Shown piece by piece: positions 23,466-51,714 of a stretch of 64,000 nt of DNA (its first letter is position 1; every line of letters begins with the position of its first letter). Source of the stretch: Anolis carolinensis (taxonomy: Eukaryota); assembly GCF_035594765.1 (NCBI RefSeq), contig NW_026943823.1:8308001-8372000 (forward strand), read 5' to 3'. The notes under the pieces are model-generated. The model was not told the DNA's origin, did no database searches, and worked only from the letters and a program-made list of their open reading frames with translations. Position numbers and translations under genes: made by a program.

Positions 23466-24830
23466 ATTAAACAAAATAATATAATGAACAATACATTAAA
23501 ATCCAAGCAGATTTGTTCCCTCTGGACAACCTAGCAGTTCGAAAACATGTGAATGTGAGTAGATCAATAGATACCGCTCCGGCAGGAAGGTAATGGCGCT
23601 CCATGCAGTCATGCCAATGGCCTCATGACCTTGGAGGTGTCTACGGACAACGCCGGCTCTTCAGCTTAGAAATGGAGATGAGCACCAACTCTCAGAGCCG
23701 GACATGATTAGACCTAATGTCAGGGGAAAATCTTTGCATTTATCTTACCCCTCTGGAATGACTATAAACCTAGCTGTCATAAGCAGCTTTCCATTTATTT
23801 GTCAACAAGTGTTTTAGATTCCAGCTTTCGGAATACCAGTATTTGCATGAGCCATCTTGGAGATGGGATTGCAAAATTCACATATGTGTCATATATACTT
23901 TATTTATTTACTTGCTTGCTTGCTTTTTGTTAAATCCTGCCTCCTTCCCCTACCCCAACCCCTCAATCAATATCAATCAACATTAATTAAAAACAACATG
24001 AAAGCATTTGAATTATAGGTACACATATTTAAAAAGGCAACCACACCATTTATGTTATTCAAACCATTAAGCATTAAAATATTAAAATGTATTAAGAGTT
24101 TATGCCCATCTTAAAATAATGCCATTCATCCATTAATAAATGTCTGGTGGCAGAGGAATGCTTTGTTCTCGTATATTGCATTTTATACTCAATGTTTTCA
24201 TAATGTTGTGCACAGACAGCAAAACAAACACCACAGGAGTGTTCACCCTTCCCTATGCTATCCAAAACTACAGAACCAACACATGATCGCAATCCCAAAC
24301 CCGCAATAATGGAGACACTATGAGACTCAGCAGGATTCCTAGGAGTTGGGAGTTTTGGGACCAGCCTGGGAAAAAGGATCCTTCACATCTATTTGGTGTC
24401 AGAGATGGCATGAGCCTCTGGCACCAGAGATGGTTGTCTCATTTTCCCTAATGGTAGTGTTGGGCTTCCAGAATGTGGTCCTGACTCCACCTCATGTCAA
24501 CAATAGGTGACTATGGCATGCATTACACAGCTCAACAACAACAACATTATTATTATTTTTCTTGGCGTCTTGAGGATTATAACCCTTCTTGGGGTTATGA
24601 GGAGCAATGAGGAGAGTGGTTAAGAAATAAAAGTATTATTATTATAGGGTTGTTGTGTGTTTTTCGGGCTGTATGGCCATGTTCCAGAAGTATTCACTCT
24701 TGACGTTTCACCGACATCTATGGCAGGCATCCTCAGAGGTTGTGAGGTATAAATGTGAATGAAATGTCAGGAGACAATACTTCTGGAACACGGCCATACA
24801 GCCCGAAAAGCACACAACAACCCTGTGATT

Positions 24831-24958
24831 NNNNNNNNNNNNNNNNNNNNNNNNNNNNNNNNNNNNNNNNNNNNNNNNNNNNNNNNNNNNNNNNNNNNNN
24901 NNNNNNNNNNNNNNNNNNNNNNNNNNNNNNNNNNNNNNNNNNNNNNNNNNNNNNNNNN
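24831..24958. other. Assembly gap (128 N)
   Basis: Run of N. Confidence 1.
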
Positions 24959-29300: not shown

Positions 29301-31132
29301 ATAGAGATGGCCTATTACGTAGATTAATAACCACCACCTTACAGGGGTTGCTCGGTACTGGCCATGCAGGAGAAGGCTGATAAGAGCTGTGGCTCAGCAA
29401 CATTGGGAGGGTCACACATGATCCATACCATCCTAGGCAATACAAGGGACAAACTTCAAAGAGAATTCTCTTACCTACATGAGATGGCCAGACTGTTATA
29501 TGTGGATGAGAATGATACCAGCCCACAACTCTCATAGGCCGCCCTGTTAATTCAGCCAATCTGTGTGCTAGTTAAGGTCTTGTTTTAAAAAATGTTAGAT
29601 ATGACTACACCCTAAGCTTAGCTGACTCATGTAATATCAGACTAGTTACAAATGTAAATCACTTCTAAAAAGTATACGAGACAAAAAAAAGTATTCTTAA
29701 TTTTTTAAAAAACCACTGTTTTTCATAGATACCCCATAATTTCCATCAAAGGATATCTCTGCTTCCGTTGAAGCAGCCGAGAGCTGCTCAGGAGAAATCT
29801 CCACGCGGTCCTTTCTTTTATCCGACCTCCGGAGAATGATCACAGAATGAATGTGGACAATTCGGCTAGTGTCGACCTGGAGATAAATCCAGAAAACAAC
29901 CCTTATTGATAGCTCCTTGTATTTATGCCCCAGTTCAAGGCACATATTGTGGGTTATTCTGCCTTGATATTCTGGGTTATATAGCTGTGTGGAAAGACCC
30001 CCAGTTCAGAGCAGAATGTGGGATTTTATATGGGGACGAGAGACAGGGCCTTTTCAGTGGCGGGGACGAGAGACAGGGCCTTCACGGTGGCGGGGACGAG
30101 AGACAGGGCCTTCACGGTGGCGGGGACGAGAGACAGGGCCTTCACAGTGGCGGGGACGAGAGACAGGGCCTTCACGGTGGCGGGGACGAGAGACAGGGCC
30201 TTCACGGTGGCGGGGACGAGACAGGGCCTTCACGGTGGCGGGGACGAGAGACAGGGCCTTCACGGTGGCGGGGACGAGAGACAGGGCCTTCACGGTGGTG
30301 GGGACGAGAGACAGGGCCTTCTCAGTGGTGGGGACGAGAGACAGGGCCTTCACGGTGGCGGGGACGAGAGACAGGGCCTTCACGGTGGCGGGGACGAGAG
30401 ACAGGGCCTTCTCAGTGGTGGGGACGAGACAGGGCCTTCTCAGTGGAGGCTCCTCGGCTGTGGAACTCCCTCCCCAGTGATATCCGGCAGGTTCCATCCC
30501 TTCTGAGTTTTAGGAAAAAAGTGAAGACTTGGCTTTGTGAGCAAGCATTTGATGAGTGAATTCTGTTGGCTTTGACTCGGGCCGGATCATGGTTCATGTA
30601 CAAGGTTTTGCGGACGAATGGTTCAAGTATTTTATACTCTATTGTTTTAAATGCATTTATTGTATTTTGTTAAATTATCCAATTGTTTTAATTGCTTATG
30701 TTTTATCTTTTTGTATTGTATATTGGCATTGAATTTTTGCCAGACTGTGAGCCGCCCTGAGTCCCTTCGGGTGAGAAGGGCGGGATAGAAATGAGGGAGA
30801 TATATAAATAATAATAAATTATATAGCTGTATGGAAGGGCCCTCAGGACCCTGAATATCAAGGCAGAAAATCCCACAATATCTGGTTTGAACTGGGTTAT
30901 CTGAGTCCACACTGCCATATATTCCAGTTCAAAGCAGAAAATGTGGGATTTTATTCAGCTGTGTGGAAGGGGCCCAAGAGACGGGAGGAAGGGCAGCAAG
31001 GCCTGGGCCTGCGCGCGGACGCCTCACCTCCCCGATGCAGAGGCCCATGACCTCCTCCTTCTCGGTGCTCAGCGCGTGGTTCAGGCAGACCAGGAAGGCG
31101 TCGGCCTCCAGGTGGGCCGCCTGCACCGCCAT
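26314..31132 (-). CDS. BRCC3: Lys-63-specific deubiquitinase BRCC36 (JAMM/MPN+), complete, 8 coding exons, 261 aa
   Basis: Exons 31132-31028, 29876-29757, 29562-29475, 28916-28828, 28273-28218, 28084-27953, 27106-27063, 26465-26314 sum to 786 nt in frame. MAVQAAHLEADAFLVCLNHALSTEKEEVMGLCIGE...VVGWYHSHPHITVWPSHVD (JAMM motif)...ELLKELAALE*. Candidate AATAAA on minus at 25872-25877. Confidence 0.97.
28364..28393 (-). repeat. Short interstitial telomeric repeat, (GGGTTA)4 on minus
   Basis: TAACCC x4 on plus, inside BRCC3 intron 4. Confidence 0.8.
29563..29756 (-). other. U12-type (minor spliceosome) AT-AC intron of BRCC3
   Basis: 5' end ATATCCTTT, branch site ACCTTAAC 8 nt before the 3' end, terminal AC. 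Only the AC acceptor keeps the ...EAE/RLAEL frame. Confidence 0.92.
30032..30445 (+). repeat. 30-bp minisatellite (~14 copies) derived from L2 ORF2 sequence
   Basis: Unit GGGGACGAGAGACAGGGCCTTCACGGTGGC; the last copy continues into RAFSVEAPRLWNSLP of the L2. Confidence 0.9.
30032..30818 (+). mobile_element. 5'-truncated L2 LINE inserted into a MITE-like element in BRCC3 intron 1
   Basis: ORF2 C-terminus RAFSVEAPRLWNSLPSDIRQVPSLLSFRKKVKTWL, then a 3' UTR and the GCCGCCCTGAGTCCCTTCGGGTGAGAAGGGCGGG tail; candidate TSD TTATAT at 30026-30031 and 30819-30824. Confidence 0.85.
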
Positions 31133-31720
31133 CCCGACCTTCTCCCAGGCCGGAGAACCAGCAGCCAATCCCCGAGACCCCTCTCCTTCCGCGTCTCCCG
31201 GACAACGCCGACTTCCGGTTCCGGTCCCCAAACATCCCTTAACCGGAAGCGCCCGGCCAGCTCCCGCAAGACGCGCTGTATCGGTTCCGCTGCTAACGCC
31301 GTGCCAGGTCGGTTCTGCTGTTGGGAGAACGGGGACAGTGTGTCATTATTATTGCTGCCATTACTGGGGGAAGCTGGAAAACGAATAGGAAAAGGGGAGG
31401 GCTCAATAAATAGGGGTGTGTGGACCTACTCGAGCGAAGGCTTGGCCCTCTCCGTGCAGGCCTCTCGCCTGTTGCCATGGGAACTCCTCAGCGGGGCGCA
31501 TTCCCCCTTAAAGGAAGCCGGCCTGGTTTGTTGTTTTTGTTGTTATTGTTGTTGTTCTGTGTCCCCTCGAGTTCCAACCCTTCTCCGAATTGGCCCAGAA
31601 GGGTTTGCCTTGGCCTTCCTTCTGAGGCTGAGAGAGTGTGCCTCGCCCAAGGTCACGAAGGGCCCTTCCACGCAGCCACATTACCCAGAATATCAAGGAA
31701 GAACATCCAACAATATCTGC
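30980..31720. promoter_or_regulatory. CpG-island bidirectional promoter for BRCC3 and MTCP1/CMC4
   Basis: GC/CpG-rich. ETS/GABP-type CCGGAAG sites in opposite orientations at 31211-31218 and 31243-31249. Candidate plus-strand donor CAG|GTCGGT at 31307/31308 for a non-coding first exon. Confidence 0.75.
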
Positions 31721-31862
31721 TTGGAACTGGGTTATCCGAGGCCCTTTTCACACTCCTGAATAAATTCCCACATCTGCTTTGAACTGGAATATATGGCAGT
31801 GTGGACTCAGATAACCCAGGGCCCATAACCCAGATAATTCAGACTGGGGGTCAGCCTGTTGT

Positions 31863-32833
31863 AACTCAAAGCACAGATGTCTATAATCTACAGTGAAACG
31901 TAAAAAGGAAAGTATGGTATATAATGTGAGGATACTACGTTGGTAATGTAATATTATCTTCTATATAAACAACTTTTAGTGGCACTTGTTATACAAGCTG
32001 CAAAAGAAGGGGATTATGGTGTCATATTAACAACAATCTAAACTGGATAGTGGTAGATCATAGCCCTCTGGAAACTCTTATGTTTACTAATAGTATATAT
32101 TGCAATGAATACTTTACTTTAGGTATCCACTACTTATATTCTCTTTCACTACATTAGTATAGTTCTTAACATAAAGGAATACACTTAGCAACACTTACAA
32201 AGGTATTATGGAAAAACTATTCCTATTTATAGTTTAAGTGTCAGTTATGTCAAATAGAAATCAAAACCAGATAAAGTCTTATTGTTGACTTAATAACAAT
32301 CAAAATTGCTGTCGCAGCGTTGAATCAAGGTAAATAAACAGTTCTTAACATGCATATGTACATAAAGGCAACCCTTCACATAGGCCTTAACATAAAACTG
32401 TTGTAGTCTCTAGATTGATTACAATCTTGTCCAATCAAATAAATGAAAAACAAGCAGAATCTACTGCCCTCTTGATAGTGTTCTCAAGTGTTGCTGGAGC
32501 ATAGAAAAAGACAGTTCAGTAATTAATATATCATCTTTATAAGTTCTTCTCAGAGTAGCTCTTGGATACCAGACATATCACGATGTCTTAAGGGTTAAAT
32601 AAATAGATTGTTGTTTCTAGATGTTGATACCAATCCGTTGTAGGGTATCTGGGATGGCCAAGTGATCTGTGGTGCCGGGGATGGTTACGACTGGTTTCCC
32701 GGGTATAGGCCAGTTTCGTTGCTTCTTCAGGTAAACCAGATTTCCCACTGTTTGTTTGGGCTAAAGAGTGGTGTGGCTCTGCCTTCTTGATTCTTCTATA
32801 CATATAAAAATAAAGAGAGAAACTATCTAATAT
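31863..32833 (-). mobile_element. Non-coding insert with a hammerhead ribozyme motif (Penelope-like or retrozyme-like), flanked by a ~112-bp direct repeat
   Basis: Direct repeats at 31750-31862 and 32834-32944; hammerhead motif at 32682-32738; no recognisable ORF. Confidence 0.65.
32682..32738 (-). ncRNA. Type I hammerhead ribozyme motif
   Basis: UGGUUUAC-CUGAAGA-agcaac-GAAA-CUGG(15-nt loop)CCAG-UC-GUAACCA: full catalytic core, 5-bp stem III, 7-bp stem I with one bulge, minimal stem II, GUC cleavage triplet. Confidence 0.75.
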
Positions 32834-35575
32834 ACACTCCTGAATAAATTCCCACATCTGCTTTGAACTGGAATATATGAGTGTGGACTCAGATAACCCA
32901 GGGCCCATAACCCAGATAATTCAGACTGGGGGTCAGCCTGTTGTGGCAGATTCAAAATCACATCATTTATTCATGGCACTGAAAAGAGTCAGGCTCTTTC
33001 TTGCACTTTCCCAGCAGCACTTATCTGGTTGGCCTAGGCAGGATTGATTCAGAAGTGAAAGTTTTCTCAGCAAAGTTGCCCCACCCTTCCAAACTGCGCC
33101 TCAAATGTCCCAAGAGGCCTTCAATTCACACATTCAGAAATACAGCATTCAACCGGCATCACTGCACTATTTCCCCATGAATCCTATTAAGGTCATTCAC
33201 TCTAACATAACCAATTACAAAAAAATATATAGTGGTTTAAGAGTTTGATAAATTTCGTGTTCATGCAAAACACTGAAATTGTGGAAAGAGGACAGTCAGC
33301 TTAGTAACTATGGATTCCAAGGGTGTCTGAATTGCCTTTCAATTTCTTAAAAATGGGGGAAGGAACAGCATTGTGTGTGCCGATTTCATGATCTGAGTCC
33401 TACTTCCTGCTTGGAAACAGGTTGCATGGAACTTATATAGCACTGACTCACAGTTTCTCAAGTCTGCGCCCTCCTCAGCATATGGCATGCTTAGCAAAAG
33501 GGCTTGAATGAATTCTTTTGGCTCGAGAATTGGCCTTTTTCAGTCTGATTGCAGGTGCAAAGAGCGCTTTTCTCTTGGGAGTTGACACTTGAGTCCCCTC
33601 CATTTTTACTAGATTTATATTCTCAATGTATTTACGTGTTAAGCCGACTTTCCCTTTATAAAAGTTCAGAATCTTGTTGCTGTTTAACTGCTTGTTACCA
33701 AAAGAAAGAGAATGTTGGTTTTTTTCTGTCCACTGGGAAAACATACATTTTTTCTCCCTAAAATCTTTATATCAGATTTCTTGTTTCTTTCCTTACATTA
33801 CTAAAGTATGATTTTCCTGATCTGCATTTTGCTATTGTTCATCCTTTATCCAGTTTGGGACTGAGAACGCCATAAGAAGTTTCATCTGTAGGATGATATT
33901 CTTGTACATATTTCATTTGTGTTTCACTTTGTATAATCAATGGGATAATAAAATAATTGTCCGTGTGCACGAAGATCACCACGTCACCAATGACTGGGAA
34001 GAAGCATCTTCTTTCTTTGAAATACCGTTTGTGATTCTAGACCAGAAAACACTGCCTAACCATTTAGTTAGAGCAGGGAAAGGAAGGGCAGGAGAATATC
34101 CTGCTCATTTGGAAGGAAGTGAGATAGCAAATTTCCCTCCTCCTTCTCATTGTTTTGAATTCTTTCTCTCTTAATTATTGCCAGCAAAGGTAGTTACTAT
34201 GACTGACCGGTTATTTTGAATCACAGCTCTCATCGGTCCTCACTATTGGGCATGTTTACTAAGGCTGGTGGGTATCTGGAGGACCACAACTGAGCATATA
34301 GTATTTTAAGAACAGCAGAAGAAAGAAGTAAAGCAGAGGTATGATTGGTGCAGTTCCTCTGACTTCAAGATTTTCTGCCAGAATGAGACCAGCCCAGATC
34401 CTCCCTTCTCTGATGCCCCACGGAAGCAGAGAGTAGAGAGATGAAGAAAAAACATCAGAGAAAGGAAAGAAGAGACAGGAAGACAAGCTGCTGAAAGGAC
34501 TCAGTACCAATTAAGTTGTCAACTAAGGTATCTCCTGGACAGATTCAGTCAGTCACACAGCATGAATCCTCAAATACTTTGCAGATGACATAAAGGTCTC
34601 ACTGAACAAAGTCAGATTACAAGTCATGGCTCTGTAGCACTACTTCTTTCTGAAGATGAAATGTGCCCTTTAGGTGAGGTGTAACTCATTTTGAATTCCT
34701 TCTACGGTTACAGTGTGGAAGGCATATATTTCCTAAATTTCTCCCCTACTAACCCCTTTCCTCATTTTTTAAACGTTTCATTAAAAAACAAGTTTTTATG
34801 CCTCAGTTAACAAAGCAGATATATCCTTGGGCATTTTTAAATAGTTAGATTGGTCTGTTCCTGTACACCAAAACCAAAGAGGAAAAAAGGAAGAATAACA
34901 ATAATATCCAGCAAACTTTTTTTACTCAGAGCTAACAATATGGGTATATAGAAACCAAATCAGGCTAGCCTTGCATGAGAGATTGAAACATTTTGAACTT
35001 TCTAGAGCCCATTTGAAGGCTTCTTCCAAATATGATTTTCACTCACTTTCTTCCACTTTTCTCATTATTTCCATTTTGGTGGTTAAACCTATAGATCTTT
35101 TTAATGTATCAGGGCTAGCTGGTGAGGCAGGCCCTTTTTGCTTTGCTGATTTCACATAAACAGTAAGGGATTCTGGAAACAGCTGCCATTTATCTGGCTG
35201 TTGGAGGCAGGAAAATGTAACTCCAATAGGATTGGCTGCAGTAGAATCCCACACTTCCCCACATCAAATTTTATTGCAATGCTTACTCTTCGGACATTGC
35301 AATCAGATTCTCTGGTCCTCCTTCATCATCCTCCCAGTGCTGATGTTGCTAAAAACCTAAAGCGGGAAATGTACTCAGGCAAAAGGAGCTGGTGGGCTGC
35401 AAAAAGAACGTTCTGGTTGAGAGGCTGTGTTAACTGAGGTATATGCTTGTACAACAGAACCACATGCTAGGTGGGTAGAGAACTAACAGTTCATTCCGTG
35501 TCTTTATTCCAAGGCCAAGGGGACCATGTGTAGAAGGGGAATGGAGGGAGGGCCTTCCTAGCAACGTAATTGGGA

Positions 35576-36123
35576 ATGGCAGAAGGAGAGGAAGACGGTG
35601 ATGCCCTGTCCCCACCTGTCCGCCTTTGGGTGCGACGGACGGGTGTCTATTGTGATGAGAACCAGAAGACATGGCTAGTGACACCCGAAGAGGCAAGTAA
35701 GAATACTCCCTGCACTTTTTTGTTTGGATGACTTTGATGTTTGGCTTGAACTGTTTAAGCAACTGCTCACATTTTCTGCCCTTTCTTCGTTGTTTTATGC
35801 TTCTCCTCCAGGAAGCAGGCACCCTCCAAGCTCGGATAAGAAGGGTCCAGGTCCCTCTGGGCGAGGCGATGCGCCCCAGCCGCCTCCCTGCATCCCAGCT
35901 GCCCCACATGTGGCAGCTCTCAGAGGGACAGCAGTATCGGGATAGTAACTCCCGCAACTGGGGCATCGAACACCATTTAATGGTAGGTAGAACCCCAAAC
36001 ATGCTTAGCTGTGAGTTTTTGAAAAGCTGGCACTGATGACTGAGTTGATCTGAAAGCTCTTTTTGTCTCTTGCAGATCACTGGAGTGGAGGAGCTACTCC
36101 TGAAACTCCTGTCAAGTGATTAA
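35576..36123 (+). CDS. MTCP1: p13 MTCP1 (TCL1/MTCP1 family), 3 coding exons, 111 aa
   Basis: Exons 35576-35692, 35812-35982, 36076-36123 give MAEGEEDGDALSPPVRLWVRRTGVYCDENQKTWLVTPEE/EAGTLQARIRRVQVPLGEAMRPSRLPASQLPHMWQLSEGQQYRDSNSRNWGIEHHLM/ITGVEELLLKLLSSD*. This is colinear with human p13 MTCP1 (QVPLGDAARPSHL..SQLPLMWQL...QELLLKLL). The first donor is GC. Confidence 0.93.
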
Positions 36124-37465: not shown

Positions 37466-38596
37466 ATGGCTCAGAAGGATCCCTGTCAGAAATATGCCTG
37501 TGAAATCCAGAAATGTTTGCAAGGTATACCACATCTCTTGGCTCTTCTTTGATTTTATTATTCAGAGCCATCTAATATTTTCTCTTTCTATTCAATAACC
37601 TGATGTGTTTTTTTAAACTCCTGAAGCAGCAATACTGTAATATTAATAATGTATTTGGTTGGTTGGTTCATCCTGTCTTTCCTCTAATGCATTTAAAGTG
37701 GAATGCATGGCTGTTTTATTTCTTACTTTGTTTTTATGGCTATAGATGTGCAAGAGAGGTAAGACTAAGAGAGTGTGGCGCGAGATCATTCAGTCTGATT
37801 TATGATTCAGTAGGGTTTGAATATGCCAACCTCACATGGTGGCTGAGCAAGACTTATGAGAAGGGAAAGCTTTAACCTGCTCTCATCAGCAAAGGAGTGC
37901 AGTTTTTAGCCTAATCCACTGCCAGCCCTAATCTCCTGTAATGAACAGCAGGGATTGGGTTTCCTGTCATTTTAATCCAGCTCTCTCCAACTCCAATTAA
38001 TTGTGTTTTTAGTTGTTGTTTTCCATCCAATGTAAAGAACAGTTATTGAGAAACTCAAAGCAACATATTAATTACCAGTACTAATACATATTACATTGCT
38101 GTTTTTAAATTGATTCTTCTACGGATGTCAGCAGATATGTTATAACACAAATTTTCCAAATCATATTGTAAAATTTCCAGTAAGGTATGGTCTTTGCAGT
38201 CCTCTTAGCTTAAGATTATGAATCTCAATGTTCACTTCTATCAAGGGGTGGGTATTTGCACAGCAAAGCCCCACCTTTTTAATGTAAATATGAAACACAA
38301 GGGGAAGGGGCTGGAAAAGAGTATTTTTAAAACGTGACTACTGTAAGGGCAGTATTCTTAAAACGTGACTCTCAATGAGGGGTGATCATATACTAGTTTT
38401 CAAATTGTTTTTCCCCCTCCTTCCAGCAAACAACTATGTGGAATCTAAATGTGAAGCTGCCATCCAGGAGATGAGAAAATGTTGTGTCCGGTATCCAAAG
38501 GGCAGATCTATCTCTTGTTCGGGGTTTGAGTCGGAGGAAAAAGCGAAACAGAAGCCAGTTCTGGCTCCCAAGGGATTTCCCACCCCACGATCCTGA
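37466..38596 (+). CDS. CMC4: Cx9C motif-containing protein 4 (p8 MTCP1NB), 2 coding exons, 75 aa
   Basis: Exons 37466-37523 and 38427-38596: MAQKDPCQKYACEIQKCLQ/ANNYVESKCEAAIQEMRKCCVRYPKGRSISCSGF...; twin Cx9C motif, GCCATGG Kozak context, acceptor AG ending at 37454. Confidence 0.95.
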
Positions 38597-51673: not shown

Positions 51674-51714
51674 CCTGACGTTTCGCCCACATCTATGGCA
51701 GGCATCCTCAGAAG
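51674..51714 (-). ncRNA. Minimal hammerhead ribozyme motif in a Penelope pLTR fragment
   Basis: CUU-CUGAGGA-ugccugccauagaugugggc-GAAA-CG-UC-AGG: intact core with the palindromic ACGU stem III typical of Penelope-type minimal hammerheads. Confidence 0.65.

Follow-up and report, generated by a model that had tools for sequence, protein, structure and literature searches.

A 64,000-nucleotide stretch of the Anolis carolinensis genome (contig NW_026943823.1, positions 8,308,001 to 8,372,000; the window) holds, between two copies of a 113-base direct repeat, an insert with a predicted hammerhead ribozyme on its minus strand. This insert is, with high confidence, the 5′-truncated terminal repeat (pseudo-long terminal repeat, pLTR) of a Neptune-type Penelope-like element (PLE), likely a recent copy made from unspliced RNA by target-primed reverse transcription; the repeat probably represents a genuine target duplication, formed as the truncated copy became attached to the chromosome through a 5-base microhomology. 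The window copy is a truncated member of an already known element class; Neptune is listed in anoles with 376 loci, many of them polymorphic insertions (PMC7561263, Table 1). The outlying feature of the copy is the 113-nt duplication, and the shape of its hammerhead may be under-described. The features of the locus are as follows.

31659..31819: older rearranged pieces of a very common element resembling a miniature inverted-repeat transposable element (MITE), part of the target
31750..31862, plus strand: left copy of the putative duplicated target, next to the 3′ junction of the element; 113 nt, MITE-type letters kept
31861..32838, minus strand: putative 5′-truncated pLTR of a Neptune-type Penelope-like retroelement, family A
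31863..31890, minus strand: "tail" between the two preferred 3′ end zones, from the ends of sibling copies
32682..32738, minus strand: predicted type I hammerhead with stem I, CUGAAGA, one-pair stem II (32722/32718), GAAA, stem III (32714-32710/32694-32690) and predicted cut 32689|32688
32698..32703, minus strand: palindrome of six bases in the 15-nt loop III, shared with sister families B and C
32796..32838, minus strand: final 43 nt of a 159-nt pLTR intron, including a pyrimidine tract and the AG acceptor but neither the donor nor the probable start site
32834..32838, minus strand: 5-nt microhomology, where the element's truncated 5′ end equals the target; sibling copies carry the same 5 letters internally
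32834..32944, plus strand: right copy of the putative duplicated target, next to the 5′ junction of the element; 111 nt after a loss of 2 nt

Comparison of 31750-31862 with 32834-32944 bears out the direct repeat described in the original prediction, the sole difference being 2 nt absent from the right copy, with zero substitutions. The repeat covers the end of a MITE-like piece (31740-31819) plus unique DNA, so that the MITE/unique junction noted earlier does lie within it. The insert proper (31863-32833) is 971 nt long with 66% A+T and a longest stop-to-stop frame of 110 codons, in keeping with its earlier description as AT-rich and without a recognisable open reading frame (ORF). Element and repeat overlap by 5 nt at the element's 5′ end, reaching 32838, and probably by 2 nt at its 3′ end. 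In the window the insert is a single unit and forms no tandem array; its siblings are single, inverted or ORF-linked.

The original prediction had left to a genome search both the copy number of the insert and its linkage to reverse transcriptase (RT) and GIY-YIG reading frames. Searched with the insert, the genome gave 458 candidate relatives, 40 of which were scored (52 matches), and both properties were found: the insert is multi-copy and its siblings are linked to such ORFs. Its own family is called A here, next to the sister families B (about 76% identity in the ORF) and C (about 68%). Many of the first 29 siblings run on upstream with common sequence, which identifies the window copy as 5′-cut, and this upstream DNA codes for pieces of RT, a CxxC linker and GIY-YIG. 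Siblings reach into ORF DNA at loci L010, L015, L024, L025, L060 and L067; at L060, a family A copy, the ORF stops about 230 nt ahead of the point at which the window copy starts. Family A fragments match RVT_1 (E 2e-4 and 2e-5) and GIY-YIG (E 2e-4) below the curated cut-offs, and the intact sister ORF at L068 lies above the Pfam cut-offs for both domains and displays DKG, CX2CxxC and two cysteines within GIY-YIG. The linker before GIY-YIG and the cysteines inside it are found at L060 (family A), L063, L065, L068 and L070; a CX2-5CxxC linker is common to Neptune and Nematis (PMC8557442). The pLTR stands after the ORF in L060 and before ORF1 in the sister-family loci L064 and L069, and at L064 the ATG of ORF1 follows the pLTR end directly; among the loci examined, no family A copy with an upstream pLTR and ORF1 start was found. 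Since siblings run upstream into coding ORFs and the pLTR of L064 precedes ORF1, the insert is read as a pLTR fragment of a coding element, and the Penelope-type origin proposed earlier is borne out by this linkage. The full-length relatives (L064, L065, L068-L070 and L059; sense about 3480-3960) carry a 243-amino-acid ORF1 without a Pfam match. It and the RT-endonuclease ORF overlap in the -1 frame, and the position of the overlap is the same in three families; either a frameshift or a splice may lie behind this. The family A copy at L060 stops abruptly, from sense 7397 onward, in three telomere-type repeats.

The pLTR contains a 159-nt GT-AG intron, which is retained at 10 sibling sites and replaced by the exact spliced joint at 5. 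The window copy keeps the last 43 nt of this intron and was thus probably made from unspliced RNA. Of the five spliced copies, about four start near one conserved motif 164 nt upstream of the window copy's 5′ end, namely the spliced pLTR copies L007, L011, L021 and L115, which begin near the motif about 48 nt before the donor; judged from sequence, this motif is probably the transcript start site, and it is absent from the window copy. Several unspliced copies extend into the ORF. For a second, longer intron that would remove the hammerhead, no spliced genomic copy matched the single junction pattern searched, though such a form may occur in RNA; on the minus strand at 31868-31905, a pyrimidine tract and AG just before the tail resemble a second splice acceptor shortly ahead of the expected ORF1 start. 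The 3′ ends of the family fall into two zones about 25-30 nt apart: 26 of the 39 aligned siblings reach this region, 12 ending at 31884-31893, 12 at 31863-31874 (a group limited by the end of the query) and 2 earlier. The tail between these zones agrees with the finding of PMC11167929, where a tail was traced to two RT start sites. Both orientations, with inverted 5′ pieces, occur at 54 of the 125 sites described below. A microsatellite insertion bias has been hypothesised for Neptune (PMC8557442); the flanks inspected are mostly not microsatellites, and neither is the target in the window.

Duplication length was surveyed at 126 distinct sites drawn from the three families, one of which lay too near the locus end, leaving 125; the sites are best-scoring hits rather than a random sample, and repeats longer than 400 nt would be missed. 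A junction direct repeat is present at 43 of the 125 sites and at none of 300 mismatched flank pairs used as a control. Forty of the 43 measure 11-19 nt, 24 of these being 14 or 15 nt, and the three longer ones are 26 nt (L115), 62 nt (L142; 68 nt by local alignment) and 113 nt (the window), the last about seven times the family's usual 14-15 nt. The earlier view of the repeat as duplicated target rather than a long terminal repeat (LTR) is supported, and the length then called unusual is a true outlier. Inverted sites retain the repeat more often (30 of 54, versus 13 of 71 non-inverted sites), and the long repeats all occur at non-inverted 5′ junctions (3 of 13 versus 0 of 30 with the window included, p 0.023). 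At L142 (G000:C5:69058000-69063500, 1261-2882), a non-inverted insertion of sister family B is flanked in unique DNA by a junction-exact repeat of 62-68 nt with two substitutions, and 2-3-nt overlaps occur at both ends. Two further apparent duplications, of 146 nt at L115 and 50 nt at L085, proved to be matches between other repeats and were dropped. No report of long duplications in Neptune elements was found in the literature searched. Among non-LTR retroelements, R9 (126 bp) and Dualen-4b (median 900 bp) make long target duplications (PMC9977147); the likeness lies in duplications of at least 100 bp that flank a retrotransposon copy, whereas the long duplication is the rule or common in those elements and an infrequent departure (3 of 43) from a narrow 14-15-nt mode in the Neptune families studied here.

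The insertion can be pictured as follows. The GIY-YIG nuclease would nick the plus strand at about 31862|31863, and the RT would prime at the outer of its two start zones with about 2 nt of pairing; the end zones are observed, and the next three letters follow at 10 of 33 distinct 3′ ends, which fits a priming match of about 2 nt. A longer match of 5-6 nt at the 3′ junction was considered and rejected, the extended pattern being unique to the window site. Copying would then have halted after about 976 nt, where the copy does end, within the pLTR intron, with the hammerhead carried along as part of the pLTR. A second nick would normally fall 14-15 nt away, the observed mode of duplication, whose tightness suggests a fixed offset between the two nicks. 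At the window site no second RNA copy would have been primed; the free host end was probably extended by about 98 nt along the target until it met the end of the complementary DNA (cDNA) at the 5-nt match, and the 2-nt loss would have arisen in the newly made right copy. A second nick about 110 nt away would give the same product and has equal standing, as the sequence cannot separate the two. In general terms, RNA priming at both ends would yield an inverted insertion with a short duplication, and priming at one end only would leave repair to join the other. The Penelope-like element PAc nicks and extends both strands in vitro, and the same source describes the steps after first-strand synthesis as not worked out for Penelope-like elements (PMC11167929).

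The complete type I hammerhead core reported on the minus strand was recovered, with C3 at 32730, C17 at 32689 and the predicted cut at 32689|32688, and it combines a stem III of 5 bp and a stem II of one G-C pair with a stem I of 4-7 bp. In the window a loose core pattern is found 5 times where 0.84 would be expected, and none of 100 shuffles reaches 5; two of the five matches are one site and two belong to another Penelope family. The genome contains 21 exact copies of the 24-nt core. Across 10 chosen sequences stem III is 98% paired and G10.1-C11.1 is present in all 10, and in all aligned families helix III has 5 bp and helix II 1-2 bp, with a stem II of 2 bp in the sisters. Beyond the coding region, alignment of the insert with sister family B is confined to the hammerhead and the final 60 nt, a pattern that speaks for selection on the motif; the 2-bp stem I of family B and an altered core base in family C were counted against the hammerhead. 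By analogy with characterised motifs, the hammerhead is likely a slow ribozyme that needs a protein or partner, and it is probably idle in the promoterless window copy. The premise of the original prediction that Penelope hammerheads have a reduced stem II is at odds with PMC4209133, PMC6155905 and PMC6765202, which describe a reduced or absent helix III. In sister family C (L068:6158-6230, L069, L070), all five hammerheads found have CAGAAGA in place of CUGAAGA, GUU at the cut and a longer stem I. Sister family B (L062, L065, L066; sense about 6340-6440) shows a 15-nt tandem duplication of the CUGAAGA box next to its 2-bp stem I, and its copies, 95-99% identical, look recently active. Elsewhere on the minus strand of the window, at 24705-24736 and 51680-51711, two hammerhead cores belong to a different Penelope family with a long stem II, which we take to be Poseidon-like; an N stretch at 24831-24958 adjoins the first of them.

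The window copy carries 4 private changes in 975 nt, the third lowest number among 40 rows, the 39 siblings ranging from 0.25 to 2.0%; given these few changes and no substitution between the repeats, the copy is probably young. The four changes are of 4 different types, and editing of the RNA intermediate was rejected as a source of divergence. Public contigs of the same organism, 32 of about 34,000 pieces listed, were compared with the locus. Those of runs X1, X3 and X10, from three studies, are unbroken across 32944|32945, and X8 has no contig there; the assembly graph of a carrier should branch at this point, so that unbroken contigs are as expected for an empty site. In the X1 contig the last three letters, at the 2-nt difference, do not align, fitting the undeleted single-copy form. 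Taken together this suggests that the insertion is polymorphic or private, and absent from three other animals. In run X10, one contig departs from the reference after 31640.

That the insert belongs instead to a non-autonomous, retrozyme-like family spreading through self-cleaved circular RNA, as the original prediction had it, is highly improbable, even though it is non-coding, bears a hammerhead and has many copies, five spliced pLTR-only copies exist of which about four start near one motif, and a 2026 preprint derives animal retrozymes from the pLTRs of PLEs (10.64898/2026.07.22.740005). Against this stand its occurrence as a single unit without a tandem array, the scattered 5′ starts of the 39 aligned siblings, none clustered at the predicted cut, and the 3′ ends, which fall at the tail about 800 nt from that cut; the copies at the six ORF-linked loci named above continue into RT/GIY-YIG coding DNA. 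The retrozyme reading is thereby largely refuted.

The same element might also have landed without making the long repeat, which would then stem from an earlier tandem duplication or from later repair. The length far outside the family mode speaks for this, as does a target that holds a palindromic, highly repeated MITE piece. Yet both ends of the repeat coincide with the ends of the element, overlapping by 5 and about 2 nt, neither junction contains a further, nested duplication of 14-15 nt, and L142 provides a second junction-exact long case in unique DNA; a separate origin of the duplication is therefore unlikely, if slightly less so than the circular-RNA route. Least probable of all is an artefact of assembly. 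Neither junction is bridged among the public contigs listed, and all four runs disagree with the assembly, at their full depth, at 32562 and 32582; on the other hand, the assembly comprises 211 contigs for 1.85 Gb with the site inside a 25-Mb contig, the insert is identical to no other scored copy, the overlaps at both junctions are biologically typical, and a young insertion is expected to be absent from other animals.

Several results weigh against the reading of the insert as a young, hammerhead-bearing Neptune pLTR with a true long target duplication. No intact family A source element was found, the nearest sibling being 95-97% identical. With the window, chosen for its length, left out, the excess of long repeats at non-inverted sites falls to 2 of 12 versus 0 of 30 (hand-computed Fisher p about 0.08), and the 26-nt junction repeat of L115 sits inside another repeat. 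The empty-site evidence is indirect, coming from contigs that drop rare variants and are mostly MITE contigs, and no contig spanning the insertion site is present among the 32 pieces. As to the ribozyme, an Rfam scan of 30000-35000 gave three weak unrelated matches and no hammerhead at E<=10; as a monomer the hammerhead fold reaches -5.6 kcal/mol against -12.0 kcal/mol for a rival helix, and free folding is no more stable than that of shuffles (z 0.67). The covariation among copies named earlier as a check was no higher than in shuffles: in the 10 chosen sequences 3 pairs show double changes, a number reached by 208 of 500 shuffles, and the score is 0.050 versus 0.058 shuffled.

Compared with known systems, the element shares with the endonuclease-bearing (EN+) PLEs of the Neptune clade an RT with C-terminal GIY-YIG, the cysteine linker and a pLTR with hammerhead and intron, as well as 5′ truncation, inverted 5′ partners, a tail and target duplications (PMC8557442, PMC3846280). 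It differs in that the window holds the pLTR alone with a duplication of 113 nt, as opposed to 8-10 bp in Adineta, and in that the full-length relatives in this genome encode ORF1 separately, in a -1 frame overlap with the RT ORF. PAc, a Poseidon element of the green anole, is similar in its type I hammerhead, in the two neighbouring RT start sites that produce a tail, and in that both strands are nicked and extended (PMC11167929). It belongs, however, to the Penelope/Poseidon clade, which lacks the CX2-5CxxC linker (PMC8557442), and its ORF starts inside the hammerhead (PMC11167929); in the elements studied here the hammerhead lies about 850 nt from the end of the pLTR, and the start of ORF1 follows shortly beyond the tail, as observed in sister family B. 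The hammerhead of PAc needed protein and was dispensable for insertion (PMC11167929). With the minimal hammerheads (min-HHR) of metazoan PLEs the window motif has in common type I topology, an extra base between positions 9 and 10.1, G10.1-C11.1 and a loop III palindrome; those have a long helix II and no or a tiny helix III, in contrast to the 5-bp helix III, 15-nt loop and 1-2-bp helix II seen here, which bring it nearer to the fungal and protist PLE variants of the same paper (PMC4209133). Type I hammerheads with short helix II from chrysoviruses and fusariviruses also combine a longer helix III with a helix II of 1-2 bp in untranslated RNA before an ORF, and a viral hammerhead with a 1-bp helix II cut at about 0.01 per min; these reside in viral RNA, with cuts often near the start codon, and the resemblance is one of architecture only (PMC13725137). 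In the literature searched, a hammerhead of this shape is unreported in lizards; the vertebrate and Neptune hammerheads drawn in the figures and supplements of PMC4209133 and PMC8557442 may include it. A wider proposal can be made tentatively and is itself rather doubtful: lizard Neptune elements may complete insertion by two routes, either a fixed 14-15-nt double nick with both ends RNA-primed and an inverted product, or one-ended repair copying 25 to more than 100 nt of host DNA until microhomology is met, and may carry a hammerhead class of their own, with full stem III, palindromic loop and 1-2-bp stem II, slow like the fungal-virus cutters; lying in the 5′ leader of an element with two ORFs, this hammerhead would govern processing or translation.

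The genes near the insertion are the following.

31028..31132, minus strand: first coding exon of BRCC3 (BRCC36), E 8e-16
35576..36006, plus strand: MTCP1 coding exons, two matches
38420..38545, plus strand: CMC4 coding match

The hammerhead can cut minus-strand RNA only, and with the motif on the minus strand and both MTCP1 and CMC4 on the plus strand, the claim that it is antisense to these genes holds as to strand, its placement in their first intron being drawn from position. The further claim that it could cut transcripts of the BRCC3 strand is improbable, since the distance from the site down to the BRCC3 ATG is about 1.56 kb, the CpG island at about 30990-31330 does not include the site, and the copy is without its probable start site. 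From this position normal BRCC3 RNA probably starts downstream of the motif, and an effect on BRCC3 appears unlikely. Premature polyadenylation of MTCP1/CMC4 was considered and set aside, four plus-strand AATAAA signals being near chance in DNA of 66% A+T. Two MITE-like copies, 30821-30974 and 31659-31819, bracket BRCC3 exon 1 and the CpG island, mutually inverted and with a 47-nt perfect match.

For the host, the element is probably one young insertion about 550 nt from the shared BRCC3/MTCP1 promoter region. For the family, the contrast between a 14-15-nt mode at inverted sites and rare long duplications at non-inverted ones constitutes a genomic prediction for purified Neptune protein, and the hammerhead shape, missed by Rfam and unlike the animal PLE form with long helix II, indicates that Neptune ribozymes may be under-counted.

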